Source: an uncultured Candidatus Saccharibacteria bacterium (GTDB lineage: Bacteria > Patescibacteriota > UBA1384 > JAGGWG01 > CAZAJM01). Taken from it: a DNA stretch of 64,000 bases. A model generated the notes under the pieces. It worked only from the letters and a program-made list of their open reading frames with translations. It was not told where the DNA came from and made no database searches. Within the stretch, counting starts at the first letter, position 1; each line of letters starts with the position of its first letter. Of this stretch, positions 3,551-56,165 are shown one piece after another. A program made the position numbers and the translations under genes. The stretch lies in contig CAZAJM010000002.1 of the NCBI GenBank assembly GCA_964485625.1, positions 36,167 through 100,166 of the forward strand, given 5' to 3'.

Positions 3551-3720
3551 AGCCCTACCTCCCTTTTCAAGGTGCTCTTACTCAACTTATTAAACACGCA
3601 TCTAATCTTTAAGTCAAAAAGTAAGAATAAAATATATTTCCATATTTGACCAAAGGGCTTTAGCTGTGGTTAAATAAGAGTAATAATTTGTATTAAGAGT
3701 ATTAGAAAGGCTAGATATAT

Positions 3721-7888: not shown

Positions 7889-7909
7889 CCGGAAGGTTAC
7901 CTTCCGATT
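7889..7909. repeat. REP-like palindrome variant ccggaaggttaccttccgatt in the trpS / 7962 intergenic region
   Basis: Same flanks as the RAYT-associated repeats (ttttcaaa...cggaag..cttccgatt), but with a different loop-proximal stem. Confidence 0.4.
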
Positions 7910-21900: not shown

Positions 21901-23465
21901 CTTTGGTTACCAGGCAGGCGAATAACGGAAGCCAGATCATTTAAGTTGGGGTTTAGGTAGTTGTTAAGCCCGGGTGGCCGGTACTCTGTTTGATAAGCTA
22001 CATGTGCCGGATACCATTTGGTCTTATCACCAAATCCTAAAAAACCCTTAGTCTCACATTTATAGCTACCAACTACAGAGATATCGGCCGCTTTGCCCCC
22101 GTAGTGGGCTGAGCGGGTCGCTTCAGACTCACTAGTTACCGCCTCTTCATCTGACTTGGGGTCAAATTGAGTTAACCGGGAAACTTTAATCTGTGACCAC
22201 TTTTTAGAAGGTTTGGTAAGCTCATCTATTTTTTTAGTCCGAGTGGCCTTAGGAGACTTAATTATCTGGTAGAGTTCATCTTCGTCCACTTGATTAACTC
22301 CAACTCCCTCGTTCTCACCTTGGGCTCTCCGAGCAAGCTCATTAAGTAGTCGTAGTAATCTAATATCTATTTTAAACTCTTTGATTAGGCGAAGATCGTA
22401 TTGATTAATTGCTAGAACCGGCTCTTTCTGCCCCCTGTTAACTGCTTGGAGGGCTTTTAGAATATTTTGATTGTACTCTGATAGTAGGGTTAGGTCATCT
22501 CTTAAGCCTTCGTTGTCTGCTAAGCTCTGGCTACTATTAAGATCGGAGATGGTTGATTTGATTAGTTGGTGATTATCCAATGCCATCTCCAGGCTGGCTC
22601 GATTCCGGCCACCCATAGCTGATAGAGCAGAGAAGTTGGTTAAAATCCGATCGGTCTTAGTAGATAAGTTCTTTATTTCCCTGCTAAGCTCTTGCTTGTC
22701 TTGAGCCCGGGCAAATTGCCAGAAGCTGGTCTGGCTATCTGTCTCCTCGCTCTCCTCTTCCACTTCTTCATCAATTCCTTTAGCTACCTTTCTGGCCTCA
22801 TCGGCCGCCTTGTCACACTCGCCTGCCCAACAGACCGCCTCGGCCACATCTTGCCTGTCAGCAGCTAAGTCCTCATCTGGAAGCTCGGTTGGGGTTGAGC
22901 CCATATTACTAGCAAGATATATCAGGCCAAAAATTAATATTACTGCTAATAAAACCAACCCAATTATTGCAGCATATTCACCAATAAAAGCAATAGCCGC
23001 TCCGGCTCCTCTAGCAATAGCTCCACCGGCCCTACTAAGCAAACCCCCGGCCTTGGCTGCCTCCTTGCCACCCTTGGCAGCTTTGGCGGCATCTTTTGCC
23101 TCCTTCTTAACTGCTTTCTCACCTACATCCTCTGCTTTATCTTCAGCCTCATCTTTCGCCTTCTCTCCTAGGTCACTATCGTCTTTCTCCTGGTCTTCTT
23201 TCTGGTCCTTTTCTTCTTGATCTTTCTCTTCTTCTTTGTCCTCCTCCTCTTCCTTCTCATCCTGCTCTTCTTCATCTCTCTCTTCATCCTCATCTTCTTC
23301 TTGCTGCTGGTCTTGTCTGCCAACAGAAGTAGGCTTCTTCTTTAGGCGCTTAATAGTCTCTTCTGTGATCTCTGTCTCCTCTGTTTTTTCAACGTCAAGC
23401 TCCGTTTTAAGACGTTCGTAGTAACTATCTTCTTCTCTTTTTTTCTTTTTTTTATCTTTAGCCAT
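18939..23465 (-). CDS. Giant membrane-anchored surface protein (1508 aa): acidic/Lys-rich cytoplasmic N-terminus, one TM helix, about 1300-aa extracytoplasmic region. Last gene of the T4SS-like operon.
   Basis: Continuous ORF. N-terminal 150 aa are E/D/K low complexity. TM AIAFIGEYAAIIGLVLLAVILIFGLIYL at about 160-187. No enzymatic motif recognised. Confidence 0.6.
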   Translation of the reverse strand: MAKDKKKKKREEDSYYERLKTELDVEKTEETEITEETIKRLKKKPTSVGRQDQQQEEDEDEERDEEEQDEKEEEEDKEEEKDQEEKDQKEDQEKDDSDLGEKAKDEAEDKAEDVGEKAVKKEAKDAAKAAKGGKEAAKAGGLLSRAGGAIARGAGAAIAFIGEYAAIIGLVLLAVILIFGLIYLASNMGSTPTELPDEDLAADRQDVAEAVCWAGECDKAADEARKVAKGIDEEVEEESEETDSQTSFWQFARAQDKQELSREIKNLSTKTDRILTNFSALSAMGGRNRASLEMALDNHQLIKSTISDLNSSQSLADNEGLRDDLTLLSEYNQNILKALQAVNRGQKEPVLAINQYDLRLIKEFKIDIRLLRLLNELARRAQGENEGVGVNQVDEDELYQIIKSPKATRTKKIDELTKPSKKWSQIKVSRLTQFDPKSDEEAVTSESEATRSAHYGGKAADISVVGSYKCETKGFLGFGDKTKWYPAHVAYQTEYRPPGLNNYLNPNLNDLASVIRLPGNQRGHHNIDSALMESGLSQIAQELGIDPRYLINSRLDSPNLGSAHLEDGLGLPSGTINSIVAGSGSGELSVGSRYLEQILGLPGGSIEGSSQEDILKSIGLRVIREGLGLDYSNWQGDWSNYELGKAVVENAYRIDYSEDNLEKIINTNPNQFIRKTGIESLGGSNNETLSLVGQAYRTRVNNSQSLSGLSKSIGLPSDTISDLSSSKESSLLTAGLYHLSGALGIDPYNQESSQDISLDLLNSLISSGEISLPLGISKAQVQSIIANQDDQRREEGLENLGQDVIERIKDEQIDNLTREKLTELTGVDYYQVGAEDLKNLLTNKERLNEYIKLAGSSLEEELFYQYRPNFGNYQPTIYDYHSIKDGNWQDVVNRIGSSYVETELGLPGNSFMAIVDGGSNTDEAIARAGLALILERLGVDNTNSYGWFDEWEYDGPSKNIKLEVGQAIVESKGLTSGSFFGDMEEIIKQNGKERVAASFNISVEELDQIIETDEVPDQTVIDKLSWADSSLGLDRGLTYRLYQGEIKAEDYARRVAQAQLFGLSNKKLADLVGLDERPDIDVNIADLILNGNVDNNQLITGLSQLYDRYLGQELSWPKDLALSQITNDPESRDRALSAGMERLSLILTDGNRSQANVLSNLFDRSYIRGEEIGQDEYLEAGLSFVGVSGSTVTDRTVLTNLFNGNIDSAFDEINQEVIKDQTQQTLIGSWIDLRLDGAIGLTRAEIDAIEETYNGWEDGNVGDGRLISVLNSSFEVVDPAVVNVIEGDLDYLEMTEMFFDDEFQQFAGITVGQARQIRDIYQGFQNGNLEEGEFYTQLATSFGVDRDVVESARAAESIISGGEVGVGTIGYMAYQIGIGEEIDEATGIRGFSRGLIVGLVTQNWYELGVTVLSNLLGIGETKCQDPTEITREHIRELVGWTLRAEDLPLQIGVFREEDVNYYNGLSDEGEEDQDRPNLIYDKYGSLEERGNRGLFSNNHMWNHIHIGY

Positions 23466-23468
23466 TTG

Positions 23469-24770
23469 TTAATAGTTTTTAGAGATTAATTCAAGGCTAA
23501 CTAACTGATTATCTGTAGTTAAATATATTTGGTTGTTATTATTATCTACCTCGACCTCTCTAACTACCTCCTTATTATCCTCTGGCCAGCCATACTCTAG
23601 TAGTTCTCCACTGTTAATATCGTATCTAAACAATTTATCTTCTTCGTCGATTCTGCCTGTTCCAATAAACTGGTTGTTGCTGACCCAGTCGATATTGTTT
23701 AGATCTAGATTAATATTTAAATTCTCCTTATTCTCACCACCTATATCCATAATCGAAAGAGGTTTTAGTCTTTCTGGGGATTGACTTAGGTAGAGAATCT
23801 TCTTGCTATCAGCACTTACCTGGGCCCAGCTAATTTGGCTGTTCTCTAGTGGTGTCCGGAGCCGATCCAAGTAGCTATCATAGATTGAGATACTTTCGCT
23901 GTTACTAATTAGAATATATTCCTTGTTTGGTGACCAAGATATCTCTGGGTCGGTATAACCACTAATCTTAGCTACCCTTCTAACATTTTTTCTCTCCAAG
24001 TCACTTACCACTAGAGAGCTCTCTGGCTCTAGGGTTGAATAGTAGTAGGCGACCTGGTCAAGATCAGGATTAATACTGATACTACCAATGCCGGTGCCCC
24101 AAAACTTAGCTGTTTGATTGAGTAGGTCGTAGCGATTAAAATCATAGAAATATGTAGCAGCACTAGAAGTATCTTTAAAAAATTTAGTGCCGGTTAATTG
24201 GTAGGGCTTATCTATTTGGGCGATAACTCCTAGGTGATCTTTGGTCCAGATAAGGTTTTTAATGTTTCTAAAGATATTTGGAGAGATCCTTTCGGGGTTA
24301 GCCCCATCTCTTCCTAGATTTAATCTCCAACAAGAGCTGTTTTTAAGATAGAAGAGGGTGTTTCTGTTTGAGTCGTAGCTTAGATACTCTATCTTACCCT
24401 TATCAAGCTCATTAAACGACGGCTCTTTCTGCAGATTTACTTTAATTGGCTCGTTGGAGAAGTAGTCGACATTAATTGTCTGTCTGTAAGTTAGATATCC
24501 AGGAGCGGAGATCATTAACAGGTGCTCTCCGGGGCTGGCAGAGAAGCCCTTGTCAACCTCTCTGTTATCCAAAGCTATACTGACCTCTTCTGGTTGGCTA
24601 ATAACTTTAACTGGTGCCTGGTAGAAAAAAAGCAAGTAAAGACCACCAAGCACCAGAACAATTGCTAGGCCGATAATTGCCCTATTAAGCCAACTTAAAC
24701 CAGCTCCTGACTTTTTAATCTTCTGGTTGGTGCTAAACTCCTTCTCTAACTTTTCTAACTGTTTATTCAT
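23469..24770 (-). CDS. Membrane-anchored TolB-like / PD40 beta-propeller protein with a PEGA-like domain
   Basis: N-terminal TM LAIVLVLGGLYLLFF. The LLMISAPGYLTYRQTINV segment resembles a PEGA domain. Repeated ...SWSPN.../...ILY.S... propeller-like blades. Confidence 0.45.
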   Translation of the reverse strand: MNKQLEKLEKEFSTNQKIKKSGAGLSWLNRAIIGLAIVLVLGGLYLLFFYQAPVKVISQPEEVSIALDNREVDKGFSASPGEHLLMISAPGYLTYRQTINVDYFSNEPIKVNLQKEPSFNELDKGKIEYLSYDSNRNTLFYLKNSSCWRLNLGRDGANPERISPNIFRNIKNLIWTKDHLGVIAQIDKPYQLTGTKFFKDTSSAATYFYDFNRYDLLNQTAKFWGTGIGSISINPDLDQVAYYYSTLEPESSLVVSDLERKNVRRVAKISGYTDPEISWSPNKEYILISNSESISIYDSYLDRLRTPLENSQISWAQVSADSKKILYLSQSPERLKPLSIMDIGGENKENLNINLDLNNIDWVSNNQFIGTGRIDEEDKLFRYDINSGELLEYGWPEDNKEVVREVEVDNNNNQIYLTTDNQLVSLELISKNY

Positions 24771-25932
24771 GAGAGTAGATTATTGTTCCACTTGAATCAG
24801 TGTGAGACAGATTACTTGCTTGATTGTATAAAGATCTATCTAACTGACAGCTATAGGCGCCTCTTGTTGTTGAACTATTAACCATAAGTGTATCTGTTGC
24901 TGGATCGTAACCTCTTATCACTATGATGTGACCATAGCTTGATCTTGATCTTTGGCAATTTGAATTGAAGTGGAATCTTTGGAATAATATTACAGGATTT
25001 TTTGCTTTAAGTGATTTCATAACAGTCGACCAACCATTTCCATTGGAGCTTACTCTGCCAACCTTCCAGGCTTTGCCACTTTGTTTTTTTAGTTGAGACA
25101 ATGCTGCTGAGGGAGTGTTAACTGGCCCACCTGAGTATGTATCATCTATTGTCCAGTTACCACCGTAGTAATTAAGCACCATGGCAACCGAAGCTCTGCC
25201 ACAAGTCATACTTGTCTTTTGACCAACTAGGGGCACATTAAGTTTAACATAGTCTCCTCTGATAATATTAGAGGCAGTAGCCGTTTTTAGACTTGGACAA
25301 GAGCCAATAATTTCATTAAAAACTTTAGGTACTACATCAAACCAATGATTGCAATTTTTTCCGCAATATATTTCTCCTATCGACCTAATGTCTGTTATTC
25401 CTTTGCTCAGATATTTTCTTTGCATATATTCAGCATGATTGGCAATTGAGGTATCGTAGTCCGGAAAATCCTCCCAGTCTCTTGGATTAGAACCATTAGA
25501 AGGTACACAAGGATAATCTCCTAATTTAGCAGTATTGCAAGTCATGCTTTGGTAATTATGAGTTGAGGATGAAGCTGCTCCGTAGTTAGTGGCATAAGTT
25601 GTTTCAGCGCCAGCAATAGCAATCATCAGGGCCGGATTCACATTATACTTCTTTCCCTCCCCGGCAAAAATTAACCCCTTATCGGCTAGAGGAGAGTCCG
25701 GTCTTTTTTTAGAAAACCAAGAGTTAAGACATTTTCCGACCTCTTCTGGATCGGCTCCTGAAGGATAGAATAGGCTGCCACTACCACCAGCCTGGGCTGA
25801 GGGCATATACCCACCAGCAATGCCGGAAGTTCTTTCGTGAAATGCAAAAGCGCCAACTGCGCCAAAGATTAGCATGGCGATACCAATAACAAAGACAATT
25901 ATTGTGGCTACTAACCCATCCTGTCTTATCAT
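24763..25932 (-). CDS. Membrane-anchored cell-wall hydrolase: N-acetylglucosaminidase-like domain plus C39/papain-like cysteine peptidase domain (CwlT/PrgK/TcpG analogue)
   Basis: The start is placed at the ATGA overlap with the upstream gene (MIRQDGL...), not the longer ORF-track start. Glucosaminidase-like VNPALMIAIAGAETTYATNYG...SIANHAEYMQRKY. Peptidase part QKTSMTCGRASVAMVLNYYG (Gln/Cys) with GHIIVIRGYD (His). Confidence 0.6.
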   Translation of the reverse strand: MIRQDGLVATIIVFVIGIAMLIFGAVGAFAFHERTSGIAGGYMPSAQAGGSGSLFYPSGADPEEVGKCLNSWFSKKRPDSPLADKGLIFAGEGKKYNVNPALMIAIAGAETTYATNYGAASSSTHNYQSMTCNTAKLGDYPCVPSNGSNPRDWEDFPDYDTSIANHAEYMQRKYLSKGITDIRSIGEIYCGKNCNHWFDVVPKVFNEIIGSCPSLKTATASNIIRGDYVKLNVPLVGQKTSMTCGRASVAMVLNYYGGNWTIDDTYSGGPVNTPSAALSQLKKQSGKAWKVGRVSSNGNGWSTVMKSLKAKNPVILFQRFHFNSNCQRSRSSYGHIIVIRGYDPATDTLMVNSSTTRGAYSCQLDRSLYNQASNLSHTDSSGTIIYSHE

Positions 25933-26627
25933 GGCGCCCTCCAAGCATAACCGACTTGATCGTGAGGATTTTTTAGGAAAAATGATCTGGATATCCATTG
26001 TACGCTGCAAGAACTCTTGCCGCTATTGTGAACTAAGAAGGCATCTTTGTTTTTATCATATTGAGTAGTTGCCATAATATGCATAGTTCCACCGGTGCCG
26101 TTTCTTTTGGGATACTTGGTATAGATAATGACAGCGTCGCCATTTCTAATGGTGTTAATTATGCTGTTCATACCATCGTTTTTATAACTTGTTCTTCTTG
26201 TCCAACTCCCCGGAACCTTTCTTTGTAGTTCAGGACCCCAAGGCCTTCTTCCACCTGACCAATAAGTAAGATCTGTTGGTTTTATGTATTCTCCGGTATA
26301 GCCCATAATAATAGCGGCAGCAGAGGTACAGCCACAGTAACCGCTTTTGAATTGTTTTAGGCAGGGTATATAGTGGTTGTTTGGGTCACCATTAATATAT
26401 GAGCCATCACCGGCTACAGATTCAATATTAACAGGTTGGTTAGGATCTGACGCAATATACTCTCCTTCTGAGGGGCTAAACCCGGCCCCAGCCACAGGCG
26501 AGTAACTAGCCAAACTAACTCCTGCTGCTATGGCTAGGTCAACCAAAAGAATGCCGGCTAAGATAAATATTCCGGCGATTAGGCAACTTACCGCTCCAGC
26601 TTGCTTATTCTCCCTGGCTCTCATCAC
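25929..26627 (-). CDS. Membrane-anchored papain-like (C39-like) cysteine peptidase domain protein
   Basis: N-terminal TM. GYCGCTSAAAIIMGY (catalytic Cys context) and MHIMATTQYD (His), resembling the C39-like fold of the next gene. Confidence 0.45.
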   Translation of the reverse strand: MMRARENKQAGAVSCLIAGIFILAGILLVDLAIAAGVSLASYSPVAGAGFSPSEGEYIASDPNQPVNIESVAGDGSYINGDPNNHYIPCLKQFKSGYCGCTSAAAIIMGYTGEYIKPTDLTYWSGGRRPWGPELQRKVPGSWTRRTSYKNDGMNSIINTIRNGDAVIIYTKYPKRNGTGGTMHIMATTQYDKNKDAFLVHNSGKSSCSVQWISRSFFLKNPHDQVGYAWRAP

Positions 26628-28404
26628 CCTCCTCCTCTTTCATCTCTAGGATCTCCTTGGGATCAGTGGTAATCATCTTGTCTTCAATATATGAGCCGAT
26701 GACTTTGATAGCGGCATGGTTTAGACCGGCAAAGAAAAGCCCTTCACCTACATCTGATTGGAGTAGTAGATATCTTTCTCCTTGGGTTAGATTAAATGTT
26801 TTGCTAACTAGATCGATTGATGACGGAGATTGTTTGAGCAGCATCTGTAGGGAGGAGTTAGAGACAATCGCCTTGCCATACTTGTTATTAAGCACATCTT
26901 CTACATCTTGACTGACCACGGTTAGACCTAAGTAATATTTTCGAGCCCTTTTAGCTAGAGCATAGAGGAACTTAGCTGAATCTTCATGTTGCATCATCCA
27001 CCAGGCCTCATCGACGACCATCAGTCTTCTTTTCTTCTCTTTTCTAATCTGGTTCCAGACGTAACCTAGAATATTGTAGATCGCCAGTGGTCTTAGCTCT
27101 TCATCTAGGTCTCTTACGGAGAAGACATTCATCTGGTTGTTCATATCGATGTTGGTCTGGTGCTTGAAGAGGCCTGAGAAGGTACCCTGGGTATACTTCT
27201 CTAATCTTCTAGCCAGGCTCTCACCATCCTTCATACCGGTTAGTACTCTCTGAAGATCTTCCAGTAGAGGTGGCTCGTTCTTGTGGGTCTCAATATTTTC
27301 GTTAATATCTTTTAGGGCATATGTTTCAAAGAGAGCTTTCTCTAAAATAGCATCTTCTTCTACGCTTAAGCCCTCCATCATCAGCCCGACTAAACCTTTG
27401 ATTCTAATAATAGTGCCTTTTAAGATTGCCTCCCCATCTTCTTCTTGGCCACCGGAGAGATCAAATGGGTTGATCCAATTGCCGGCCTCTAGGTCAACCT
27501 GTAAGTAGTTACCACCAATTCCTTCACACATCCGCTTGTACTCTTCTTCCGGGTCAACTACTATTACCTGCGTGTCATACATCATCGATCTAATAATCTC
27601 TAGCTTAACAGCGTAGGATTTTCCCGAACCAGACTTACCGAAGACAACTGAGTTGGCATTCTCCAGTTCAAAGCGGTCAAAGATGATAAGGGAGTTGTTG
27701 TTACGGTTGATTCCATAAAGAATACCACTGTTACCAGTTAGATTGGAAGAGATAAAGGGGAAGGTAGAAGACAGAGAGCCGGTATCAAAATTACGATTAA
27801 TCATTAATTTGTTTAGTCCTAGGGGAAGGGTTGAGTCAAAACCATCTTTCATTCTAAAGAGGGCTCTTTTGGTTAGAACGATTCCTCCGGCTAAGCGAGT
27901 CTCTATCTGAGAGGTGAGAGTATCTAGTTCCTCAAGGGTTTTAGCATAGATTGTAAAGTAGAGCCCAAATTGGAAGAGCTTAACCTCTCCTTTCTGTAGG
28001 GCATGCCTTAGGGATTCAACATCTTCCATAGCTGTTTCAAGCTCTGGGTCGGAGACTAGGCCCTTCTCTTTTTTCATTCGCCAACTCGATTCCATCTGGC
28101 CCAGCCTGGTCTGGAGTTGTTTCATGATCCGCTTGGTGTCTACCGGATAGACAAACATAGATATATCCATGGTAGCATCGTAGTTAATTAGGGGGGAGAG
28201 CCAGTTGGTGTTTAGATATCTTGGGTAGGTAAAGACAAAGAAGGTTTTAGCATAACGATCATTTATCTTGATATGATCGGGATTAACCAAAAAACTAGCT
28301 GGAGCGATTAGGTCTTTAACCTCAATCATTCCCTTCTCGTAGATCTCCAGGGCTTTCTGGGGGCTTAAGTCGTCATTTTTCTTCTTCTCGCCAATGCCAA
28401 ACAT
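26605..28404 (-). CDS. virB4: VirB4/TraE/ConE-type type IV secretion ATPase (ATPase core)
   Basis: Walker A VVFGKSGSGKSYAV. Walker B RRLMVVDEAWWMM (the DEAW motif typical of VirB4). 599 aa. Confidence 0.8.
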   Translation of the reverse strand: MFGIGEKKKNDDLSPQKALEIYEKGMIEVKDLIAPASFLVNPDHIKINDRYAKTFFVFTYPRYLNTNWLSPLINYDATMDISMFVYPVDTKRIMKQLQTRLGQMESSWRMKKEKGLVSDPELETAMEDVESLRHALQKGEVKLFQFGLYFTIYAKTLEELDTLTSQIETRLAGGIVLTKRALFRMKDGFDSTLPLGLNKLMINRNFDTGSLSSTFPFISSNLTGNSGILYGINRNNNSLIIFDRFELENANSVVFGKSGSGKSYAVKLEIIRSMMYDTQVIVVDPEEEYKRMCEGIGGNYLQVDLEAGNWINPFDLSGGQEEDGEAILKGTIIRIKGLVGLMMEGLSVEEDAILEKALFETYALKDINENIETHKNEPPLLEDLQRVLTGMKDGESLARRLEKYTQGTFSGLFKHQTNIDMNNQMNVFSVRDLDEELRPLAIYNILGYVWNQIRKEKKRRLMVVDEAWWMMQHEDSAKFLYALAKRARKYYLGLTVVSQDVEDVLNNKYGKAIVSNSSLQMLLKQSPSSIDLVSKTFNLTQGERYLLLQSDVGEGLFFAGLNHAAIKVIGSYIEDKMITTDPKEILEMKEEEGDESQGE

Positions 28405-28405
28405 A

Positions 28406-29146
28406 TTATTTACTTTCTTTTTTAGATTTAATTACCGCTCCCATCACATCTTCCGGGTTAGCTATTTTTTTGAACTGAGCCGAGGTTGGGTTGTAGGAGG
28501 TGTATAGTAGCTCAATAATCTCCTGGGTGTTAAGCTGGACTGCTCTGATGCCAATAGAGCTTAGCCCAGAGGCTACCAGGCCTGCTCTCTGTCGCAGTTC
28601 TTTCTTCGCCGCTTCCTTATCTTTGATCTCTATCTTCTTTTTCTGTTTGCTCCTAAAACCGGCAAATAGTTTCTCAAAAGGATTTAAGGCCTTAGAGGAG
28701 ATTGGTTCATAGGGGACAACAACGAAGAAGTTCTTATCCATAATATTGGCAACATCGATTATTCGACGGACAAAGTCGGTATAGTCGGCCATCTGAGCCC
28801 GGAGTAGACTATTGGATTGGTTCTTGGTCCGCTTCTCCAGGTCTTGTAGATATCCTGTTAAGTTTAACTTTCGAGATTGAGTAATAATTTGAATGGGGAA
28901 GGAGAGAGAGTTGAGAAAAGCTTGATAGCCACCGATAATAGCGTTCTGTTCCTCCTCGTTTTTTAAGGAGAAATTAACGGCCGAGACCATTAAGACGATT
29001 CTTATGCCTCCGTTTTTTAAATAAACAAAACCATCCTCAATCCGATCGATATCCAGATTCTCTTGAGTTGGATTATATTTAGTCTCCGTAGACTCTTCTA
29101 GGCCCTCCGGGACTTCTCTGTCTTTCTCTTCTTCTTTCTTTGCTAT
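28406..29146 (-). CDS. VirB4 N-terminal-domain-like protein. Probably begins upstream of the first ATG at a non-canonical start near 29146.
   Basis: ORF track gives 28406..28990 (194 aa). The same frame stays open upstream to a TAA at 29156-29158 and encodes ...NPTQENLDIDRIEDGFVYLKNGGIRIVLMVSAVNFSLKNEEEQNAIIGGYQAFLNSL, which resembles N-termini of Gram-positive conjugative VirB4 proteins (pattern recalled from memory). A perfect SD AAGGAGG sits 4 nt before an ATA codon at 29146-29144. The gene ends 1 nt before the virB4 ATG. Confidence 0.45.
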   Translation of the reverse strand: MAKKEEEKDREVPEGLEESTETKYNPTQENLDIDRIEDGFVYLKNGGIRIVLMVSAVNFSLKNEEEQNAIIGGYQAFLNSLSFPIQIITQSRKLNLTGYLQDLEKRTKNQSNSLLRAQMADYTDFVRRIIDVANIMDKNFFVVVPYEPISSKALNPFEKLFAGFRSKQKKKIEIKDKEAAKKELRQRAGLVASGLSSIGIRAVQLNTQEIIELLYTSYNPTSAQFKKIANPEDVMGAVIKSKKESK

Positions 29147-29189
29147 ATTCCCTCCTTAATTAATATCTGCCTTCTAACTTCTAATTATA

Positions 29190-29723
29190 TCACACAGCCT
29201 CTACTTCGTTTAATGGATCTTCTAAGCCCTCTTTTCTCTCTTGGGGTGACTCAACTCTGCCCTCCGGTTCATCTTCACTGACCACCCTCTTGCCCGTATC
29301 TCTATGCCGCCAGCCGTGGGTATCGACAATCTCCGCTAAAATCTGTAGGCGGCTACGGACCTTTTTGGGGTCTTTAGTTAGCTGGTCGTCATCTTCCTCC
29401 TCATCTTCTTTAGCAATTTTAGGTAGCTCTTGCCCTTTTTTAAAGTATTGCTTTGTCCAGACGAAGATCTTGGGAGAAAAAACAAAAGAGATAAAGGCGG
29501 ATAGAAAGTAAGCAAAGTCTTGTTCTTGAACTTTTAAGAAGGCGAAGGCCAGAGCAGCGGCAGTGATTAGAAAGATTAGCAACCAGCCGGACCAATGGGT
29601 AAAGGTAGAGTAGATGATATAGTCGAGCATGCCGGCTACCAAAAGAAAAATGAACTGCTTTAAAGTCAGAGGCCCAATCACCTTATCTTCCAAGTCTATA
29701 TTTTGTGGGACTTTGTATTGCAT
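29190..29723 (-). CDS. PrgI-family (VirB3-like) two-TM protein
   Basis: N-terminus MQYKVPQNIDLEDKVIGPLTLKQFIFLLVAGML matches the PrgI-family signature (VP.[DN]I...E.K.iGp.TlrQ). Two TM helices. Immediately upstream of the VirB4 genes. Acidic C-terminal tail. Confidence 0.6.
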   Translation of the reverse strand: MQYKVPQNIDLEDKVIGPLTLKQFIFLLVAGMLDYIIYSTFTHWSGWLLIFLITAAALAFAFLKVQEQDFAYFLSAFISFVFSPKIFVWTKQYFKKGQELPKIAKEDEEEDDDQLTKDPKKVRSRLQILAEIVDTHGWRHRDTGKRVVSEDEPEGRVESPQERKEGLEDPLNEVEAV

Positions 29724-29726
29724 AAA

Positions 29727-31814
29727 TTATTCATTTAGATTTTCTTCGTATCTACTTAATTCGCTAATTTGCTCTCTAATTACCTCTTCTATGGTTGAGC
29801 TCTCAATTCTTCCTTCGCTTATCTCCCTAGAAAGAGCCCCTATTATTTCATCAATTCTCTCTTCGGGGATATCTCCTACAGCTTCATGTTCAAGGGTTCT
29901 TTTAATCTGTTCCTTTATCTCTTTTCTGGTTGCTAATTCCTGAGTGGTAATGCCTCTAGTTTCAGTGCTAAGCACTTGAGTTGGTCTTGGGGCGTCAGCA
30001 ACAGTTCTGCTAATAGCAGTTGCTCTGGTGGAAATAGTATCATTTAAACCTATTTCTAGCGCTAATTGTTCGCTATTTGGAGCACTTCCAGTTCGACCTA
30101 CATAACTTTTAAATGCTGGTGCAGATATTGAATAATTAGAAAGTGCTCCCAAGGCACTTTCTTTGGTGTGAACCATATCTTCAGGAAGGCCCGTTACACT
30201 TACCACACGATCTACTACACTGCTTTCTAGATCACCCTCACTTCTATTTTTTATTTCGGCTTGGAGTTCTTCGATGTTGGTAATTGTTACATCAATGTCT
30301 TCTTGGCTTCTAAGGTTATCAATTGTTGCTTCAGCTATTAAATCGTAATTGCCCCCTCCTATCTCCAGGCCTGCCATTTTTTGCAAATTTTTAATATCTT
30401 TATCACTAATTTTTTCAAATAATATACCCTTTTCATCATTTATCATTTGTTGCCCGGCAGTTGTGCTAGGATCATAAAATCCCTTGCCTTTACCTGAAGC
30501 TTCACCTATACCTTGCAGTAAGCTTTTTATAAGTGGTTTGTCGTCTTTGTAATCCGGATCATTAAACATCATACCGAGGGCTCTTATTGCTGCGGTTCTT
30601 GTGTCTGCGTTGCCAGCGTAGAGTGCTCCAAGTGCGCCCTCGATTCCTCCATTTTTGATGTTCTCAGCTGAAGACATCGCTTTATCATGATATTGGGTCC
30701 TTAGCATCTCTTGACCAAGCCTATGTTTTTCCCAGCTCTTCCTAACACTTTTGCCTGTCTCTTTTGACTCAACTTCCAAGGCATTTTCTAGTATATCATC
30801 AATATGCTTTCCCCCTTCTAGACCCTTGTTAATATTACTAAAAAATCTACCAGCACCTACTGCCTGATCATCATCTCCCAATTTTCGACTGCCTACTTTT
30901 GCTCCCCACTTTAAAAAACCCCCAGCCCTTCCTAGCGATTTAGATACAGTTTCTCCAGCTTTTCCTTTAAAAAAACCTAGAACAGCTCCAGAAATGCTAT
31001 TCATACCAACTATTTGATAGGAAATTATTAATGCGGCTATGATTAAAACAATGCCACCGATAAATCCTCCCCAAGGAGTATCGCTGGCTTGCACTTGCAA
31101 GACATTTATCAACCAGACTGAAATAAATATTACCGGACCTACTAGTAAGAATTTTAAAAACCAATCAAACCATATCCCAGCAATGGATTTTCCTAGTGGA
31201 ATGAAGTACAGAACTACGGCGACAGGAGATAGGACGAACAGTATAACTATTACGTAGTATCTAACATATAAGATGAAGGTGAGCATCACCCAGAGAATAA
31301 GAGGAATTAACAAGAGTAATGCCCCGACAATTATCAAGGGAAGGCCGAGTGCTCCAACATAGGGAAAAAACAAGGCGATTACCCCAGTTAAAGTAAAGAT
31401 TCCGCCAACAGTGGTTTGGCCAGTCATGGAACTATAAAGTATCTCACCAATTCCATCCCCAGGACCAGCTAATTGAATAAAAAAATCAGTAACGGAGCTT
31501 ACAATATCTACAACTTCAATAATTAGAAAATAGCTAAAATTTGCTAGAATTATTCCAACAATAAGTCCAGGTAGCGTTCGTTTGATGTCATAGGTTTCTA
31601 AATCAATTCTAAGTAGATAAGCTAAAGCAATAAATATTAATCCAACTACGGCAACAAAATTAACCAGCCCAAGCACAACACTCCAAGCCTCTTCCATCCC
31701 TGCTGATCTAAGCTCTCCGGCAATTCTTGGATAGCCATACGACAGGTTCGGAACAGTTAAAGCTGCCATTAAAAAGAAAAAAATAATTAACTTTTTTATT
31801 TTACACAGGAACAT
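29727..31814 (-). CDS. VirB6-like polytopic membrane protein with a large C-terminal soluble domain
   Basis: Signal-like N-terminus, at least 6 hydrophobic helices within the first about 280 aa, then a roughly 400-aa hydrophilic domain. Position next to PrgI/VirB4, as for VirB6/ConG/PrgH analogues. Confidence 0.5.
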   Translation of the reverse strand: MFLCKIKKLIIFFFLMAALTVPNLSYGYPRIAGELRSAGMEEAWSVVLGLVNFVAVVGLIFIALAYLLRIDLETYDIKRTLPGLIVGIILANFSYFLIIEVVDIVSSVTDFFIQLAGPGDGIGEILYSSMTGQTTVGGIFTLTGVIALFFPYVGALGLPLIIVGALLLLIPLILWVMLTFILYVRYYVIVILFVLSPVAVVLYFIPLGKSIAGIWFDWFLKFLLVGPVIFISVWLINVLQVQASDTPWGGFIGGIVLIIAALIISYQIVGMNSISGAVLGFFKGKAGETVSKSLGRAGGFLKWGAKVGSRKLGDDDQAVGAGRFFSNINKGLEGGKHIDDILENALEVESKETGKSVRKSWEKHRLGQEMLRTQYHDKAMSSAENIKNGGIEGALGALYAGNADTRTAAIRALGMMFNDPDYKDDKPLIKSLLQGIGEASGKGKGFYDPSTTAGQQMINDEKGILFEKISDKDIKNLQKMAGLEIGGGNYDLIAEATIDNLRSQEDIDVTITNIEELQAEIKNRSEGDLESSVVDRVVSVTGLPEDMVHTKESALGALSNYSISAPAFKSYVGRTGSAPNSEQLALEIGLNDTISTRATAISRTVADAPRPTQVLSTETRGITTQELATRKEIKEQIKRTLEHEAVGDIPEERIDEIIGALSREISEGRIESSTIEEVIREQISELSRYEENLNE

Positions 31815-33261
31815 TGTTTAGTAGATTGTTTAATATATTAAAAATACTTTCAACTATTTCGTTTACCCACTTCTTTAATTTTTCCGTGATTGATTTTAAA
31901 AATTGATTACCCCCCTTTAAGCTTCCTCTATCAGTCTGGTCATCAACAGTTAGCATTAGTGAATTAAAGTTCTCTCTCTCTTTCTTTACTATTTCCAATA
32001 AATTTTCATCTTGAGAAGCTAAACACTCTCTATATTCGATATATTTGCTTAAATAGTTTGAGGCTAGATAAAGTTTTTCCCAATCTTTTTGTTGATTTTG
32101 GTTATAATTAAGTAGTCCAAGCAGGACATCTGGGGTTACCTCACTTAGTTCTGTTACACAAGTTGCCAAATCAACAAACTTATTATATTTAGATGTTTCG
32201 CTGTTAACTTGATTTGATATAGCGGTTTTTGTTAATCCAGATTTACTTTTTCCGGTACAATAAGGTATTCGATCGACAATTTCTTCATGATCAGCCCAGG
32301 CACTAGTTATTGTTTTTTCTGTTTCATGTATTATATTATTCATTTGTTGATAGGTGCCAGTGTTTATACTAGACAAGCCTGCATTGGCAAAGAAGCTAAG
32401 AAATAAATTTTTATCCTCTTGGAAGCTAAGAAGCAATAAGTCTGGGTCGTCGAATATCACATTGTTGTTTTCTGACCACCAATTATTAGCTTGCTTTTTT
32501 ATTTGGCTAATAATCTCTTTCCCATTGTCTTGTGCTTGATAATTATTTTCCAAATTTTTGTTAGTGCAATAATCAATTGCATCTTGAGAGGCTTCTCTTT
32601 GATGTAAATTATCAGTTGTATTTAGCTTGGCCCCATTAGCATAAATGTCTTTGGATAATTTTGCTAAAGTAGGATTATCTTTTTCATCAATAATATCAAA
32701 TTTATATGTTTGAAACGGTCCAGTGAACCATTGGAGCTTCCTAACTATTTCGTCTATAACATTAGTTGTGTCAGGTTGGTTGTATTGAAAAGAGTAATCA
32801 GATTCATCCCTGTCTGTGTGTTTTACCAGAGCCAAAACAGATTTGTTGGATACAAATAACACGCTTCTTTTATCACTTTCCAGTATGTACCAATTTGCAT
32901 CTACCATTCTGTTCGCTGAAAGCGGATCATTCGGGTCAAACCTTTCTGTTGATCTAGGAGGCTGCCCTCTGTATAAAGATCCTAGACTAGAAGCTGGCCC
33001 CTTGAAATAATAGACTTTATCAGTATCATCAATTGTCAATTTTATTTTTTTAGTATCTGATTCCGGCTCTATAATTAGGTCAAACTGATAATCTCTAGAG
33101 TAGCTTAAACTGGGTAAGTCATCAATATTAATACCTTTTGTTTTTGTCGGATTTATTAAAATTATAGACGTAACAAAAACCAATAAAACAAAAATAGGAA
33201 AAAAAGCTAGCAACAAATTTTTTGTATTTTTTTTATTGTTCTTTCTGTTTTTTCCTTTCAC
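31801..33261 (-). CDS. Bitopic membrane protein (486 aa), unknown function. Possible VirB8-like scaffold analogue.
   Basis: Basic N-terminus, single TM LLLAFFPIFVLLVFVTSIILI, large extracytoplasmic domain. Translationally coupled within the cluster. Confidence 0.4.
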   Translation of the reverse strand: MKGKNRKNNKKNTKNLLLAFFPIFVLLVFVTSIILINPTKTKGINIDDLPSLSYSRDYQFDLIIEPESDTKKIKLTIDDTDKVYYFKGPASSLGSLYRGQPPRSTERFDPNDPLSANRMVDANWYILESDKRSVLFVSNKSVLALVKHTDRDESDYSFQYNQPDTTNVIDEIVRKLQWFTGPFQTYKFDIIDEKDNPTLAKLSKDIYANGAKLNTTDNLHQREASQDAIDYCTNKNLENNYQAQDNGKEIISQIKKQANNWWSENNNVIFDDPDLLLLSFQEDKNLFLSFFANAGLSSINTGTYQQMNNIIHETEKTITSAWADHEEIVDRIPYCTGKSKSGLTKTAISNQVNSETSKYNKFVDLATCVTELSEVTPDVLLGLLNYNQNQQKDWEKLYLASNYLSKYIEYRECLASQDENLLEIVKKERENFNSLMLTVDDQTDRGSLKGGNQFLKSITEKLKKWVNEIVESIFNILNNLLNNVPV

Positions 33262-34296
33262 TTATCCCTCCTCTTTTAGTGAGTTTGCTTTTAGCTGCAT
33301 CTGCTTAGCAGTCTCTGTTTCGTTTTTTGATTGGTAGGCTTTGGAGAGCAGCTCATAGGTTAGGCTGTAGCTGGGGTCTAGCTCCTTAGCCTTATTTAAA
33401 TTCTCTATTGCTTGATCAGTTTGGTTCTCTTGAATCTGGCCATAAGCTAGAAAGACATAGCCATCTCTTAGATCCGGATATTCTGATATTAACTCCTCTA
33501 GTTTAGCAGTGGCTAGACCGGACTCCCCTACCTGATTAAGCAGTTGGCCTAAAAGTAGCTTTCTAGTGGCTGGGCTATTGGTGGCTAGCATTCTTTTAAA
33601 AGCGGTCTCTATTTGCTGGCAGTCTTCCTTGGTTGCTGCTAGAACAGACTTCTCTAAATTGCTAAAGCTTACTTCTTGGTTTTTGGAGTATTTCTCGATT
33701 TGCTCATAGCCATTTTCAACATCTCTGTAGGCCAGTACTAATCCGAGGTAGAGATTATAGTCAGCTGAAGGGAAGATCTCTAAGGCAGCTTGGAAACTCT
33801 CTTCTGCCTGTTTGAGCTGATTCTGGTTCATCTGGGCCCTACCTAGCCAGTAATATATTTCACTGTTGGTCGGTTCATAGGCGAAGCAATTTTCAAAGTA
33901 GCTCTGAGCTTGGGCGTAATCTTTTTGATTGTAATAGGTTTTGGCTAGAGCGAAGGTGGGCGCCATCTCTTCTCTGGCAAACTGGATTGACTTTTTGTAT
34001 GAGTCTATTGCCATCTCTGTCTGGCCTATCTTCTCAAGCACTCTGCCTTGGTGGTAGTAGGGGGCAAAACTTCTGGGGGTGGCCATCTGAGCTTTCTTGT
34101 ACTGCAAATAGGCCTGTTTGTACTCTTGGCTCTGTTCTAATTCTTGACCTTTAGCTAGATAATCTTCGGCCAGACTAGCTCTTTTGCCATCCATTAGAAA
34201 CCAAAAAGCACCAAACAGGATAAGAATTGATAAAAAAACAATTAAACCGATCTGTAATCCTCGATTTTTCATAAGCTTGAGTTTATTATAGCACAA
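33262..34296 (-). CDS. TPR-repeat membrane-anchored protein
   Basis: N-terminal TM. At least 6 TPR-like 34-residue repeats (A..Y...G......A...Y..AL...P). Its stop abuts the next gene (1-nt gap). Confidence 0.6.
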   Translation of the reverse strand: MCYNKLKLMKNRGLQIGLIVFLSILILFGAFWFLMDGKRASLAEDYLAKGQELEQSQEYKQAYLQYKKAQMATPRSFAPYYHQGRVLEKIGQTEMAIDSYKKSIQFAREEMAPTFALAKTYYNQKDYAQAQSYFENCFAYEPTNSEIYYWLGRAQMNQNQLKQAEESFQAALEIFPSADYNLYLGLVLAYRDVENGYEQIEKYSKNQEVSFSNLEKSVLAATKEDCQQIETAFKRMLATNSPATRKLLLGQLLNQVGESGLATAKLEELISEYPDLRDGYVFLAYGQIQENQTDQAIENLNKAKELDPSYSLTYELLSKAYQSKNETETAKQMQLKANSLKEEG

Positions 34297-34319: not shown

Positions 34320-36407
34320 TTAATTAGGCCAGTCCGACACTATTAGATCCTTATACTCCTCTTCATCAAAGGCCTGGTTTAGTTCTTGCCAGAGAGTTTC
34401 GGTGATATGGGGGATAAAGGGATGGAGCAGTTTTAGGCTAATGGCAATTACTCCGCCTAAGAACTCGACTGCCTCTTGTTTTTTCTTTTCGTCTTTGCCA
34501 AAAATAGCGTCTTTGTTATCTTCTAGGCATTTATCGCAGAAAGAGTGCCAGAAGAAGTGATAGACTTCCTTTATCGCTAGATCATAACGGTACTTATCTA
34601 GGTATTTATTGGTCTTATCAATAGTTGTTTTTAGCTCCTCTTTGATCTCTTGGTTATGTTTTGACTTTGGTTCTAGCTCACTTAATTTGGTTGGTAGTTG
34701 GTAGCTTCTCTCTACGTTCATTAGTATAAAGCGAACTGCATTCCAGATTTTGTTATTAAACTTCTGTCCGGCCAGTACGTCTTCTTCGCTATACTTTATC
34801 TCTTGGTTATGGCCTGAGTTCCAAGCCAGGCTAAATCGAGTAGCATCGGCGCCGTATTTCTCTATTAGCTCCAGTGGGTCGATGCCTGTGCCTAGACTCT
34901 TGCTCATCCGCTGGCCTTTCTTGTTTTTAACTGTGGCATGAATATATACCTCGTTAAAGGGGATCTTTTCTGTTAGTTCTAAGGAAGAGAAGATCATCCG
35001 GGCTACCCATAGGTAAAGAATATCTCGAGCAGTAGTTAGCAGTTGGGTTGGGTAGAAATCTGCCATATCTTTGCTTTCTTTGGGCCAGCCTAGAGTGGCA
35101 AAGGGCCAGAGAGCTGAGGAGAACCAAGTATCAAGAACGTCTTTCTCGCCCTTAATTGGGATCTCGTGGCCCCACCAGATCTGTCGGCTAATACACCAAT
35201 CGCGGACGTTCTCCATCCAATCAAGATAGATCTTTTTGTATCTTTCCGGATAGAATTTAATCTTACCTTCCTCTACTGCTTTAATGGCTGGACCTTTGAT
35301 TTTGTCCATATCAACAAACCATTGTTTGCTGGGAAGAGGCTCAATCACCGTGTCGCATCTATAGCAGAGGGCGATTCGGTTATCTATCTCCTCGGTCTTC
35401 TCTATTAGTTTATCTTTTTCCAGGTCTTTAATGACTTCTTTTCTAGCCTTAAACCTATCTAGGTCTTGGTATTTATCAGGGACTTTCTTGGTCATCTTGC
35501 CCTCTTTGTTTATAATTCGGATGGTCTCTAAGTTGTGTCTCTTGGCCATCCGCTCATCTGCTAGGTCCGAAGAGGGGGTTACTTTAACGGCGCCAGTGCC
35601 AAATTTGGCATCGACCTCATGATCGGCAATAATCTTAATGGTCCGGTCGGTAATCGGAAGTCGGACTTCCGCACCAATCAGGTCTTTATATCTATCGTCG
35701 CTCTTGTTGACCGCTATTGCAGTATCACCGAGCATAGTCTCGGGCCTGGTAGTAGCAACGGTGATATATTTGTCTTTCTTATTCTTAAGGGGGTATTTGA
35801 TATAGTAGAACTTTGACTTGCTCTCTTTATATTCCAACTCTAGATCCGACAAGCTGCTAGCACACCTTGGACACCAGTTTACAACCCGACTGCCTTGGTA
35901 GATATATCCTTTTTCTTTGTATTTAAGGAAGGCCTGTTTAACCGCTTCTTGGTAATCATTATCTAAAGTAAATCTCTGTCGGCTCCAGTCACAACTTGCT
36001 CCCAGCCTTTTGAGCTGGTCAAGGATCTTGCCCCCATACTCCTCTTTCCACTTCCAGACCTCTTCGATAAATTTCTCTTTACCCAAATCTTTTCTGGTTT
36101 TGCCCTCTTTGGCCAGTTTTTTCTCAACTACATTTTGAGTAGCTATGCCAGCATGATCTAGGCCGGGCATCCATAGGGTTTTTAGGCCCATCATTCTTTT
36201 TTGTCGAACTATAATATCTTGAACAGTAGCATTTAGGGCGTGGCCAATATGAAGAGAGCCGGTAACATTTGGCGGAGGTAGCATGGTAGTAAAGGTTTTA
36301 GCATCTTTCTTTAGTTCTAGATTGTCAGGATTAAAGTAGCCCTTCTTCTGCCAAGAACCATATATCTTCTCTTCTGATTTTTTATAGTTATATTTTTTAT
36401 CAAGCAT
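34320..36407 (-). CDS. valS: Valyl-tRNA synthetase (short form lacking a C-terminal coiled-coil)
   Basis: PPPNVTGSLHIGHA and KMSKS-type RMSKSLGTG. Editing and anticodon-binding regions present. Only 695 aa. Confidence 0.85.
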   Translation of the reverse strand: MLDKKYNYKKSEEKIYGSWQKKGYFNPDNLELKKDAKTFTTMLPPPNVTGSLHIGHALNATVQDIIVRQKRMMGLKTLWMPGLDHAGIATQNVVEKKLAKEGKTRKDLGKEKFIEEVWKWKEEYGGKILDQLKRLGASCDWSRQRFTLDNDYQEAVKQAFLKYKEKGYIYQGSRVVNWCPRCASSLSDLELEYKESKSKFYYIKYPLKNKKDKYITVATTRPETMLGDTAIAVNKSDDRYKDLIGAEVRLPITDRTIKIIADHEVDAKFGTGAVKVTPSSDLADERMAKRHNLETIRIINKEGKMTKKVPDKYQDLDRFKARKEVIKDLEKDKLIEKTEEIDNRIALCYRCDTVIEPLPSKQWFVDMDKIKGPAIKAVEEGKIKFYPERYKKIYLDWMENVRDWCISRQIWWGHEIPIKGEKDVLDTWFSSALWPFATLGWPKESKDMADFYPTQLLTTARDILYLWVARMIFSSLELTEKIPFNEVYIHATVKNKKGQRMSKSLGTGIDPLELIEKYGADATRFSLAWNSGHNQEIKYSEEDVLAGQKFNNKIWNAVRFILMNVERSYQLPTKLSELEPKSKHNQEIKEELKTTIDKTNKYLDKYRYDLAIKEVYHFFWHSFCDKCLEDNKDAIFGKDEKKKQEAVEFLGGVIAISLKLLHPFIPHITETLWQELNQAFDEEEYKDLIVSDWPN
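35655..35671. repeat. In-frame copy of the REP palindrome cggaagtcggacttccg inside valS (encodes EVRLP)
   Basis: Exact 17-nt palindrome identical to the RAYT-flanking repeat core, with an aatc flank. Confidence 0.5.
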
Positions 36408-52727: not shown

Positions 52728-52820
<93 letters not shown>

Positions 52821-55291: not shown

Positions 55292-55294
55292 CAC

Positions 55295-56122
55295 AAAATC
55301 GGAAGTCGGACTTCCGATTTTAAATAGTTCTTAATAATCTAATTCTATAGTCAGATCTCTTATTGAGTCAATTTCAATTTCCATCAACCAATCTTTTACT
55401 TCCCGCTTATATTCATCTGGATCTTGATAATTGTCAGATAAGAATTCTCTCTGAGTTAATGAAGGGAAATTTTTCTTTCCGATGTAGTCTAGATAACTAC
55501 TCCAGCGGTAGCTCTCCAAAAAATTGACTGCTCTATTTATGTTGTTCAACTTTCCTTCTTTCCAATTTGGCTCGATCAGTTCTAACGGGTTCAAATGAAT
55601 GTAATTAGGAAGATAGTTAAAGTGTTCATCCTCTTCAATTAGCACAGCTTTATACTTACCTTGGAATAGTGGCCCGACTCTATCGTTTTTTAGGTTGAAG
55701 TAATTTGTGTATCCGGTACCAATTTTTCTCATAAATTCGGTTATACCTTCGTCTTTAACTTGTTTTAATAACAAATGATAGTGATTTGGCATCAGGCAAA
55801 ATACTAATATATTCACTAAAAAGTCTCTTGGTTTTTTATTGCTCTCTTGCTTATCTCTGAGTTTCTCAATATACGGAAGTCCGACTTCCGAATATTGATT
55901 AACATAATATTTATCCGATGGATTTGTGTCGTTGAATTCGTATAGATTGTGAATAAACCTAACGTAATCTTTCTCTTCAGGGTAAATAATCCGTTTCTCA
56001 ACTCCTCTGTTATAGACATGATAGAATTTTCCAGTAATCGGTTTATCCCGATTAGTCATATTATTGATATTCTAGCCTAAAATTAGATATTTTTCAAAAT
56101 CGGAAGTCCGACTTCCGATTTT
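55295..56122. mobile_element. REPtron / IS200-like unit: RAYT gene bounded by 27-nt inverted palindromic repeats (aaaatcggaagtcggacttccgatttt at 55295-55321, and its reverse complement at 56096-56122)
   Basis: Exact reverse-complementary 27-mers flank the single transposase ORF. Each is itself an imperfect hairpin (cggaagtc/gacttccg). Confidence 0.6.
55331..56059 (-). CDS. REP-associated tyrosine transposase (RAYT) / IS200-like Y1 transposase
   Basis: YHVYNRGVEKRIIY, LMPNHYHLLL (HuH motif) and GPLFQGKYKAVLIEE (catalytic Tyr region). An internal REP copy at 55874-55890 encodes SEVGLP. Confidence 0.7.
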   Translation of the reverse strand: MTNRDKPITGKFYHVYNRGVEKRIIYPEEKDYVRFIHNLYEFNDTNPSDKYYVNQYSEVGLPYIEKLRDKQESNKKPRDFLVNILVFCLMPNHYHLLLKQVKDEGITEFMRKIGTGYTNYFNLKNDRVGPLFQGKYKAVLIEEDEHFNYLPNYIHLNPLELIEPNWKEGKLNNINRAVNFLESYRWSSYLDYIGKKNFPSLTQREFLSDNYQDPDEYKREVKDWLMEIEIDSIRDLTIELDY

Positions 56123-56165
56123 GGGGTTGTTTTAATTTTGGTTAGGCTTTAGTATTGAAACTAGT

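Follow-up and report, generated by a model that had tools for sequence, protein, structure and literature searches.

The RAYT-like locus and its palindromes

The DNA stretch under study (64,000 nt of contig CAZAJM010000002.1 from an uncultured Candidatus Saccharibacteria bacterium, referred to as the window) contains at 55331-56059, on the minus strand, a Y1/HUH transposase gene that resembles those of the REP-associated tyrosine transposases (RAYT; REP, repetitive extragenic palindrome); its 242-aa product carries the motifs YHVYNRG, MPNHYHLLL and GPLFQGKY, and copies of one short palindrome are located upstream of, inside and downstream of the gene (designated U, I and D, respectively). The downstream copy D, AAAATCGGAAGTCGGACTTCCGATTTT (55295-55321), is a perfect palindrome of 27 nt that includes an A-tract and a T-tract; it starts 10 nt past the transposase stop codon and 4 nt past the stop codon of a convergent PEMT-like gene. 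The upstream copy U, AAAATCGGAAGTCCGACTTCCGATTTT (56096-56122), differs from the 27-mer of D at the centre base alone (G versus C); it extends to a perfect palindrome of 29 nt, CAAAATCGGAAGTC-C-GACTTCCGATTTTG (56095-56123), the centre of which lies 49 nt ahead of the transposase ATG. An original prediction, made from the sequence alone, had described both 27-mers as bracketing the open reading frame (ORF) with the three motifs, and its coordinates all hold; the 27-mers are indeed reverse complements, but their inversion carries no weight, as inverting such a palindrome flips the centre base alone. A fixed inverted orientation of U relative to D was rejected: every centre-base combination occurs in the gene family described below.

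The internal copy I is a 33-nt palindrome with one mismatch (55866-55898) inside the transposase ORF; it is read in frame as N54-E65 (NQYSEVGLPYIE), with its core at 55874-55890 encoding S57-P62 (SEVGLP). Folded as single-stranded DNA, the three copies reached −13 (U; z −5.5), −12.1 (I; z −6.3) and −11.3 kcal/mol (D; z −6.7). A 17-nt core, CGGAAGTC[C/G]GACTTCCG, is shared by U, D, the site in the transposase ORF and a fourth site at 35655-35671 in valS; the further core copies in coding sequences announced by the original prediction were thus recovered at both places. A degenerate core pattern (N at two central positions, up to two mismatches allowed) matched the four window sites, each on both strands, whereas 100 dinucleotide shuffles yielded a mean of 0.06 matches and none of them reached the observed count (0/100); a chance origin of the core copies is ruled out by this comparison, in agreement with the earlier claim.

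A variant palindrome (CGGAAGGTTACCTTCCG, 7890-7906; 17 nt, perfect) is present upstream of trpS (6878-7849, minus strand), as had been predicted: it is positioned in a divergent intergenic region 41 nt 5' of the trpS start, agrees with the repeat in the outer 6 bp and in the 3' ATT, differs in the inner 2 bp and the centre, and folds as single-stranded DNA with −6.7 kcal/mol (z −2.9). Outside the repeat family, the window holds just three other perfect palindromes (stem of at least 8 bp, G+C content of at least 30%). Since the same palindromes were found in the transposase locus and in valS in independent Logan assemblies of two sequencing runs, an artefact of one assembly is ruled out. Two Logan contigs (L001 and L002, from independent short-read assemblies) terminate exactly at D; as a practical consequence, palindromes of this sort may quite generally fragment assemblies of bacteria of the Candidate Phyla Radiation (CPR).

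The Y1/HUH protein

The Pfam profile PF01797 (Y1_Tnp) matches residues 78-155 of the 242-aa protein with 28.8 bits (cut-off 23). H93-Y94-H95 constitutes the HUH motif, and H93, H95 and Y153 are invariant in an alignment of 20 homologues; Tyr153, situated in YIHLNP, is the presumed catalytic residue, and the C-terminal extension contains the sequence YRWSS. As a sequence search of solved structures gave marginal ISDra2 matches alone (E ~0.07), a fold search was needed: the top solved structure was 4ER8_A, the E. coli RAYT in complex with a REP hairpin (E 2.2e-5, TMt 0.63), with the TnpA proteins of IS608 and ISDra2 ranking under it (E 3.6e-3 or weaker). Together with the Y1_Tnp match above cut-off, this agrees with the predicted RAYT-type Y1/HUH protein.

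The AlphaFold2 model is of moderate quality (mean predicted local distance difference test score, pLDDT, of 67.7). Residues 50-73 constitute a loop with pLDDT below 50 between the helix 29-41 and the strand 82-89, and this loop contains the I-encoded residues N54-E65; according to the model, the I-encoded peptide is predicted to be a disordered surface loop that the protein tolerates. More than 5,700 relatives of the protein were found, most of them unnamed or carrying CPR/Patescibacteria lineage labels; a relation to phages was not indicated (no PHROGs match). The transposase gene is present in one copy in the window and in one copy per family locus examined.

Three-copy layout and covariation in the gene family

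The layout was compared in a family sample consisting of 80 further metagenome loci, L003 to L006 and the window, of which the 74 loci with at least 100 nt on both flanks were used. Because the palindrome-detection script overlooks imperfect palindromes, the longest word common to two regions on either strand was taken as the reliable statistic, with a cut at 13 nt. U and D had a common word of at least 13 nt in 67 of the 74 loci; nucleotides 121-260 of the gene, i.e. the I region, shared such a word with U in 56, with D in 54 and with both flanks in 52 loci. In contrast, control regions of the gene reached 13 nt in common with a flank in 0-2 of the 74 loci (median common word 8). The palindromes are usually centred at −20 to −50 (U), +159 to +207 (I) and +12 to +25 (D), the I centre being nearly always at codon position 1.

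The window, L003, L004 and L005 all bear their palindrome thrice per locus (before the ATG, in the gene at about nt +160 to +200, and after the stop codon). The palindrome is TCGGAAGTC-S-GACTTCCGA in the window and L003, GGGGAAGTC-S-GACTTCCCC in L005 and AATCTTACGAGGC-GAA/TTC-GCCTCGTAAGATT in L004, the latter being unrelated to the other two types. Thus, the palindrome sequence varies from genome to genome, whereas the copies inside one genome agree. Stem positions 7-10, which lie outside the six used for detection, pair in 82-89% of cases versus 31-49% for arm swaps between loci, and the identity at stem positions 7-11 is 0.82 within a locus versus 0.40 between loci with the same inner arm. 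The proteins of L185 and L194 are 81% identical, yet they go with two different palindromes, each of which occurs at U, I and D alike; a compensatory change of a T.A to a C.G pair distinguishes L163 from L196. The agreement within and drift between genomes call for one of two causes: selection for recognition by a co-evolving protein, or frequent copying among the three sites.

In the protein alignment, the I region appears as a motif, Q-S-x-E-V-G-L-P-K-I, in an otherwise variable and gapped stretch, with G alternating with R; this alternation is the centre-base flip of the palindrome (GGA versus CGA). The loop peptide reads EVGLP, EVRLP or YEASPRK depending on the local palindrome (QSYEASPRKI in L004; the remaining palindrome types are expected to give yet other peptides), and therefore it is the symmetry, along with the agreement with the flanks, that is conserved and not the peptide. 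As the centre base, G and C are about equally frequent at U and at D; the predominance of G (Gly) at I is expected from the coding constraint. On the basis of the family comparison, the internal palindrome is a conserved, co-evolving trait of the family and no stray copy. A broader implication for annotation is that such palindromes give rise to "conserved motifs" in protein alignments that in truth reflect DNA symmetry.

Promoter and 3' context

A promoter-like site, TTGAAA-17-TAGAAT (56069-56097, minus strand; 10 of 12 consensus matches), precedes the transposase gene. Its −35 hexamer shares 3 nt with the end of U; its −10 hexamer TAGAAT ends 9 nt ahead of the ATG, with no Shine-Dalgarno motif. 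The same arrangement recurs in the family: TAnnnT is over-represented between −21 and −12 relative to the ATG, Shine-Dalgarno-like motifs are nearly absent, and in many loci the left arm of the palindrome coincides with a −35-like hexamer and the right arm with the spacer (e.g. TTGACG-16-TATAAT in L160). On the basis of the consensus match, U would form part (−35/spacer) of the putative promoter of a leaderless-type transcript. In the 74 family loci, TATAAT-like hexamers end 6-12 nt ahead of the start codon, a spacing that suggests expression of RAYT-family genes in CPR bacteria from leaderless or near-leaderless transcripts. On the 3' side, D with its A-tract, stem and T-tract between two convergent genes is shaped, in the window, like a bidirectional terminator.

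The palindrome in valS

Within valS (34320-36407, minus strand, 695 aa), 20 nt at 35652-35671 (cggaagtccgacttccgatt) are identical to the repeat and in frame; the 17-nt core encodes AEVRLP, and the 20-nt patch (A)EVRLPI. The original prediction had placed this copy in a variable loop of the valyl-tRNA synthetase (ValRS) and had taken it for a recent in-frame insertion or gene conversion. Its recency is supported, since the nearest orthologues (76-79% identity) read GKKV[K/R]LP[L/I] and are devoid of the palindrome. However, neither the insertion nor the variable loop stands: in an alignment of 120 orthologues the segment is constant in length, with no indel in the 45 displayed apart from two length-divergent ones, and the patch is positioned in the length-conserved stretch G-K-x-V-x-L-P. 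Where ValRS usually reads G-K-K-V-I-L-P-L, the window has G-A-E-V-R-L-P-I.

At the codon level, the window reads GGT GCG GAA GTC CGA CTT CCG ATT and the orthologue of L204 GGT AAA AAA GTC CGG CTT CCA ATC. Seven substitutions in 21 nt separate the two, all of them toward the repeat (six in the patch, the seventh in the base next to it); agreement with the repeat rises from 14/20 in L204 to 20/20 in the window; the conserved V-x-L-P codons explain why the site resembled the repeat beforehand. Alanine occurs at this position in the window, whereas the other orthologues listed have mostly K, Q, E or R and never Ala. Together with the orthologue alignment, this comparison rules out an insertion: the valS copy is a same-length patch replacement with the exchange of K-K for A-E, and from the pattern of substitutions it looks like a recent, templated event. 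Quasipalindrome self-correction within valS was rejected by inspection, as the arm of the orthologue would template a palindrome other than the observed one. A role of valS as a recurrent target was likewise discarded: none of the other palindrome-bearing loci among the matches listed (see below) has the palindrome in valS.

Dispersed and intragenic copies in other genomes

An exact scan for the 17-mer in one genome per species (596 Gb) retrieved at least 117 stretches, a sample that is by its nature chosen by exact match; the counts given in this section refer to the matches listed. By our own estimate, about 70 lone chance matches are expected for a 17-mer in 596 Gb, which fits the single matches in high-GC non-CPR genomes. 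The matches are mostly from CPR lineages, several of these genomes having many copies or close doublets; the JBBTVT genome has nine loci with the 17-mer. A homologue of the transposase is encoded in about 6 of the 117 palindrome-bearing stretches. In L046 (Nomurabacteria, JANYAX010000036.1, 1-8000), eight exact 17-mers are found in 8 kb around a RAYT homologue at 3249-3914; the repeat may be actively spreading in this genome.

In low-GC CPR loci, 57 of 108 exact copies are located inside ORFs of at least 100 aa, which cover 86% of the DNA in the low-GC loci scanned. The intragenic copies use all three frames (EV[G/R]LP, GS[P/R]TS and RKSDFR), and the absence of a stop codon from each of them allows the palindrome to survive inside genes. 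Pfam-confirmed hosts include purD, murC, uvrC, gatB, mnmA, uvrB, topA, gdh, atpG and fmt. The view that a REP in a housekeeping gene is unusual therefore remains correct for classical REPs but not for this palindrome, for which such a location is common in CPR genomes.

Several intragenic copies occupy the identical codon position in different species: gatB in L050, L062, L086 and L108, mnmA in L031, L090 and L096, purD in L010 and L048, and uvrC in L023 and L083; the purD copies of L010 and L048 have opposite centre bases. These same-position copies are either old and retained, or the result of repeated strikes at favoured sites. Doublets resembling REPINs, with the two palindromes 22-35 nt apart, were observed in L007, L034, L049, L055, L061, L065, L103 and L110; several doublets are in frame inside fmt, atpG, alr and murE, and the Pfam match there exceeds the profile span, which suggests true insertions of about 17-25 residues.

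Near relatives of the window lineage

About 69 kb of sequence from near relatives contains no such palindrome, and the transposase gene is missing from their SdpI-PEMT-[slot]-dnaG-rpoD neighbourhood (DnaG identity 60-77%); hence, the gene and the palindromes appear together in the window lineage. The genomic neighbours of the transposase cassette vary between lineages. The slot between PEMT and dnaG is a small variable island with syntenic borders (55292-56165 in the window, 2448-3518 in L207 and 779-1900 in L209); in L207 its cargo is a 356-aa ORF without Pfam match, whereas L209 has a NUDIX gene together with a 228-aa ORF.

Interpretation and alternative explanations

We consider it probable, although by no means assured, that the locus represents a RAYT/REP system that belongs to a CPR-wide clade and whose layout is unusual in being self-embedded and intragenic. 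According to this explanation, the 242-aa protein would be a single-strand-DNA Y1/HUH enzyme of RAYT type and the palindrome its cognate recognition hairpin, which it would bind or cut. With U in the −35/spacer region, protein binding or hairpin extrusion would shut off transcription and the gene might thus be autoregulated; I, translated as a disordered loop that is situated between the first strand/helix and the HUH strand, would be kept matched to U and D. A few further copies would be seeded elsewhere by some copying route, in part inside genes, and the valS patch would have been made by the protein rather than by host recombination or replication.

Several observations weigh against this explanation. 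The NCBIfam RAYT equivalog NF047646 scored 40.2 bits, below its threshold of 80. I is unrecognisable in about a quarter of the loci, and at least one homologue (P0079) is devoid of the loop altogether, which shows that I is not indispensable. The T-run of D, present in the window, is missing in many other loci; termination is therefore not a general role of D. Few copies are dispersed (13 additional occurrences of a locus's own palindrome in the 332 kb that flank 63 family loci, and two copies in the other 63 kb of the window, i.e. the exact one in valS and the trpS variant), so that a function as "REP disperser" appears weak in most genomes. A 5'-guide tetranucleotide next to the repeats, for which the original prediction had suggested a check, is absent: no tag of the GTAG/CGTC type was found beside the palindrome in 108 copies, their flanks being symmetric (ATWTT-core-AAWAT). 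Finally, Y1 transposases cut and paste single strands, and no Y1 transposase is known to yield a same-length patch replacement as found in valS.

A further-reaching proposal would be that the clade keeps its recognition hairpin in its own ORF as a cis element and can overwrite patches of essential genes with the length unchanged; we regard this as speculative and rather unlikely. If true, it would imply a templated "hairpin-writing" activity, for which Y1 transposases are not known, and self-targeted switching, excision or autoregulation via the in-ORF hairpin, as well as a steady source of peptide variation in the housekeeping proteins of ultra-small genomes.

The main rival explanation is an autonomous IS200-like insertion sequence whose cassette moves as a whole, with U as the left end including the promoter (an arrangement known from many insertion sequences), D as the right end, and the solo palindromes as footprints or targets. 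Such an element would conform to the tight positioning of U and D on the gene, the overlap of U with the promoter, the Pfam match to an IS200-like family, the varying genomic neighbours and the lack of the cassette in the conserved SdpI-PEMT-dnaG-rpoD region of relatives; in these, however, the slot is occupied by other genes and a clean empty site was not seen. An insertion sequence is also difficult to reconcile with the single gene copy in 64 kb and per locus wherever examined, with the identity of both ends as the same symmetric palindrome instead of two different hairpins, left and right, on one strand, and with a 242-aa protein that has a C-terminal extension and a RAYT as best fold match rather than an IS200-family TnpA. 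Moreover, most exact palindromes listed are solo or doublet and far from homologues. On balance, we assign this alternative a minor chance. It is improbable in our view, at about half that chance, that the palindromes act as RNA- or host-level hairpins (in mRNA stability, attenuation, termination or RNase processing) unrelated to the protein, their likeness having arisen via local gene conversion: although the stems are stable, I and D are inside the transcript and D has terminator shape in the window, the predicted leaderless promoter would place U upstream of the transcription start and hence outside the mRNA. Structure alone would suffice for an RNA function, yet the sequences match within and differ between genomes; in either orientation, the palindrome also turns up in other genes and between genes, and Rfam gave no match for it.

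A genome-wide signal of another kind, e.g. a DNA-uptake sequence or a host-factor site that is dense near the gene by happenstance, is very improbable. The same 17-mer does occur in many CPR lineages, CPR bacteria are thought to depend on DNA uptake, and the uptake sequences of other bacteria also sit in frame inside genes; but with five copies in 64 kb including the variant, of which three belong to a single gene, and roughly one per 25 kb in the family flanks, the density falls far short. Moreover, the palindrome changes between genomes in step with the three copies at this gene, and none was present in the ~69 kb of near relatives that do not have the gene. The assumption of a functional peptide, Q-S-x-E-V-G-L-P-K-I, with incidental nucleotide symmetry is scarcely credible: its apparent conservation in the protein alignment is opposed by a peptide that changes with the palindrome of the genome, by the G/R alternation as a mere centre-base flip, by the predicted disorder of the stretch and by the recurrence of the same nucleotides outside the ORF. 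Overall, the RNA-only, uptake-signal and peptide explanations agree badly with the data.

Comparison with known systems and significance

What is known of RAYTs and REPs comes almost wholly from Proteobacteria, in which REPs do no more than flank the RAYT gene. The preferred RAYT/REP explanation conforms to the known systems (E. coli TnpA_REP, Pseudomonas RAYTs) in that an apparently single-copy Y1/HUH gene is flanked on both sides by a short palindrome that also occurs at other genomic sites; 4ER8 as the closest structure and the REPIN-like doublets of some CPR genomes add to the likeness. The present family deviates from them in the cognate copy at a conserved position inside the protein's own ORF, in the mostly low copy numbers and in the subthreshold NF047646 score. 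Classical REPs are extragenic by definition, whereas about half of the copies described here are intragenic and in frame; furthermore, the palindrome is symmetric without the GTAG/CGTC tag. Two surveys of RAYTs describe flanking REPINs only and mention no in-gene copy (PMC5581495, PMC6006769). A literature search on RAYT/REP in CPR bacteria and on intragenic REPs retrieved nothing relevant; its coverage was partial and is no proof of novelty.

With the IS200/IS605 family (TnpA of IS608 and ISDra2), the locus shares the HUH/Y1 fold, hairpins at both gene ends and a promoter overlapping the left-end structure; it is distinguished by the larger protein with its C-terminal extension, the identical symmetric ends and the third copy within the gene. 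In addition, multiple gene copies were not seen in the window and the loci, and solo hairpins are dispersed.

A different parallel is given by the Rickettsia palindromic elements (RPE), which were reportedly described by Ogata et al. in 2000 as inserted in frame in protein-coding genes; they are insertions of about 100-150 bp, for which no cognate transposase is known. In both cases palindromic repeats survive in essential genes of a reduced genome and are translated as extra or altered surface peptides. The unit found here, in contrast, is 17-33 nt long and tied to a RAYT-like gene, and its valS copy replaces sequence without adding length. RPEs are also a topic of PMC1779305.

If the proposed explanation holds, a family of thousands across the CPR/Patescibacteria would have the presumed target of the enzyme built into its own promoter and reading frame, where this target co-evolves. 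The family would thereby offer a natural set of matched protein-hairpin pairs from which it could be learned how HUH enzymes read hairpins, and a way into the question of how a domesticated transposase might regulate its own activity. Copies lying in frame in valS, gatB, purD, uvrC, mnmA and other genes would mean that a mobile palindrome edits essential proteins in supposedly streamlined genomes.

Other features of the window

Directly downstream of valS, the region 18939-34296 (minus strand) comprises a gene cluster that resembles a type IV secretion or conjugation system. It includes genes for a PrgI-family protein (29190-29723), a TraG/VirB4-type P-loop ATPase (26605-28404), a C39-like peptidase (24763-26010) and a TPR protein (33262-34296), a 1508-aa ORF (18939-23465) and several ORFs without Pfam match; the gene order is the same in the relatives L204 and L205. 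The Rfam search of the window matched no RNA family except one tRNA, and tRNA-Ser(GGA) at 52728-52819 is the sole RNA gene in the window according to ARAGORN and Rfam. Two back-to-back perfect hairpins with 9-bp stems (1925-1946 and 1960-1981), unrelated to the repeat family, follow an ORF ending at 1901 and are probably terminators.

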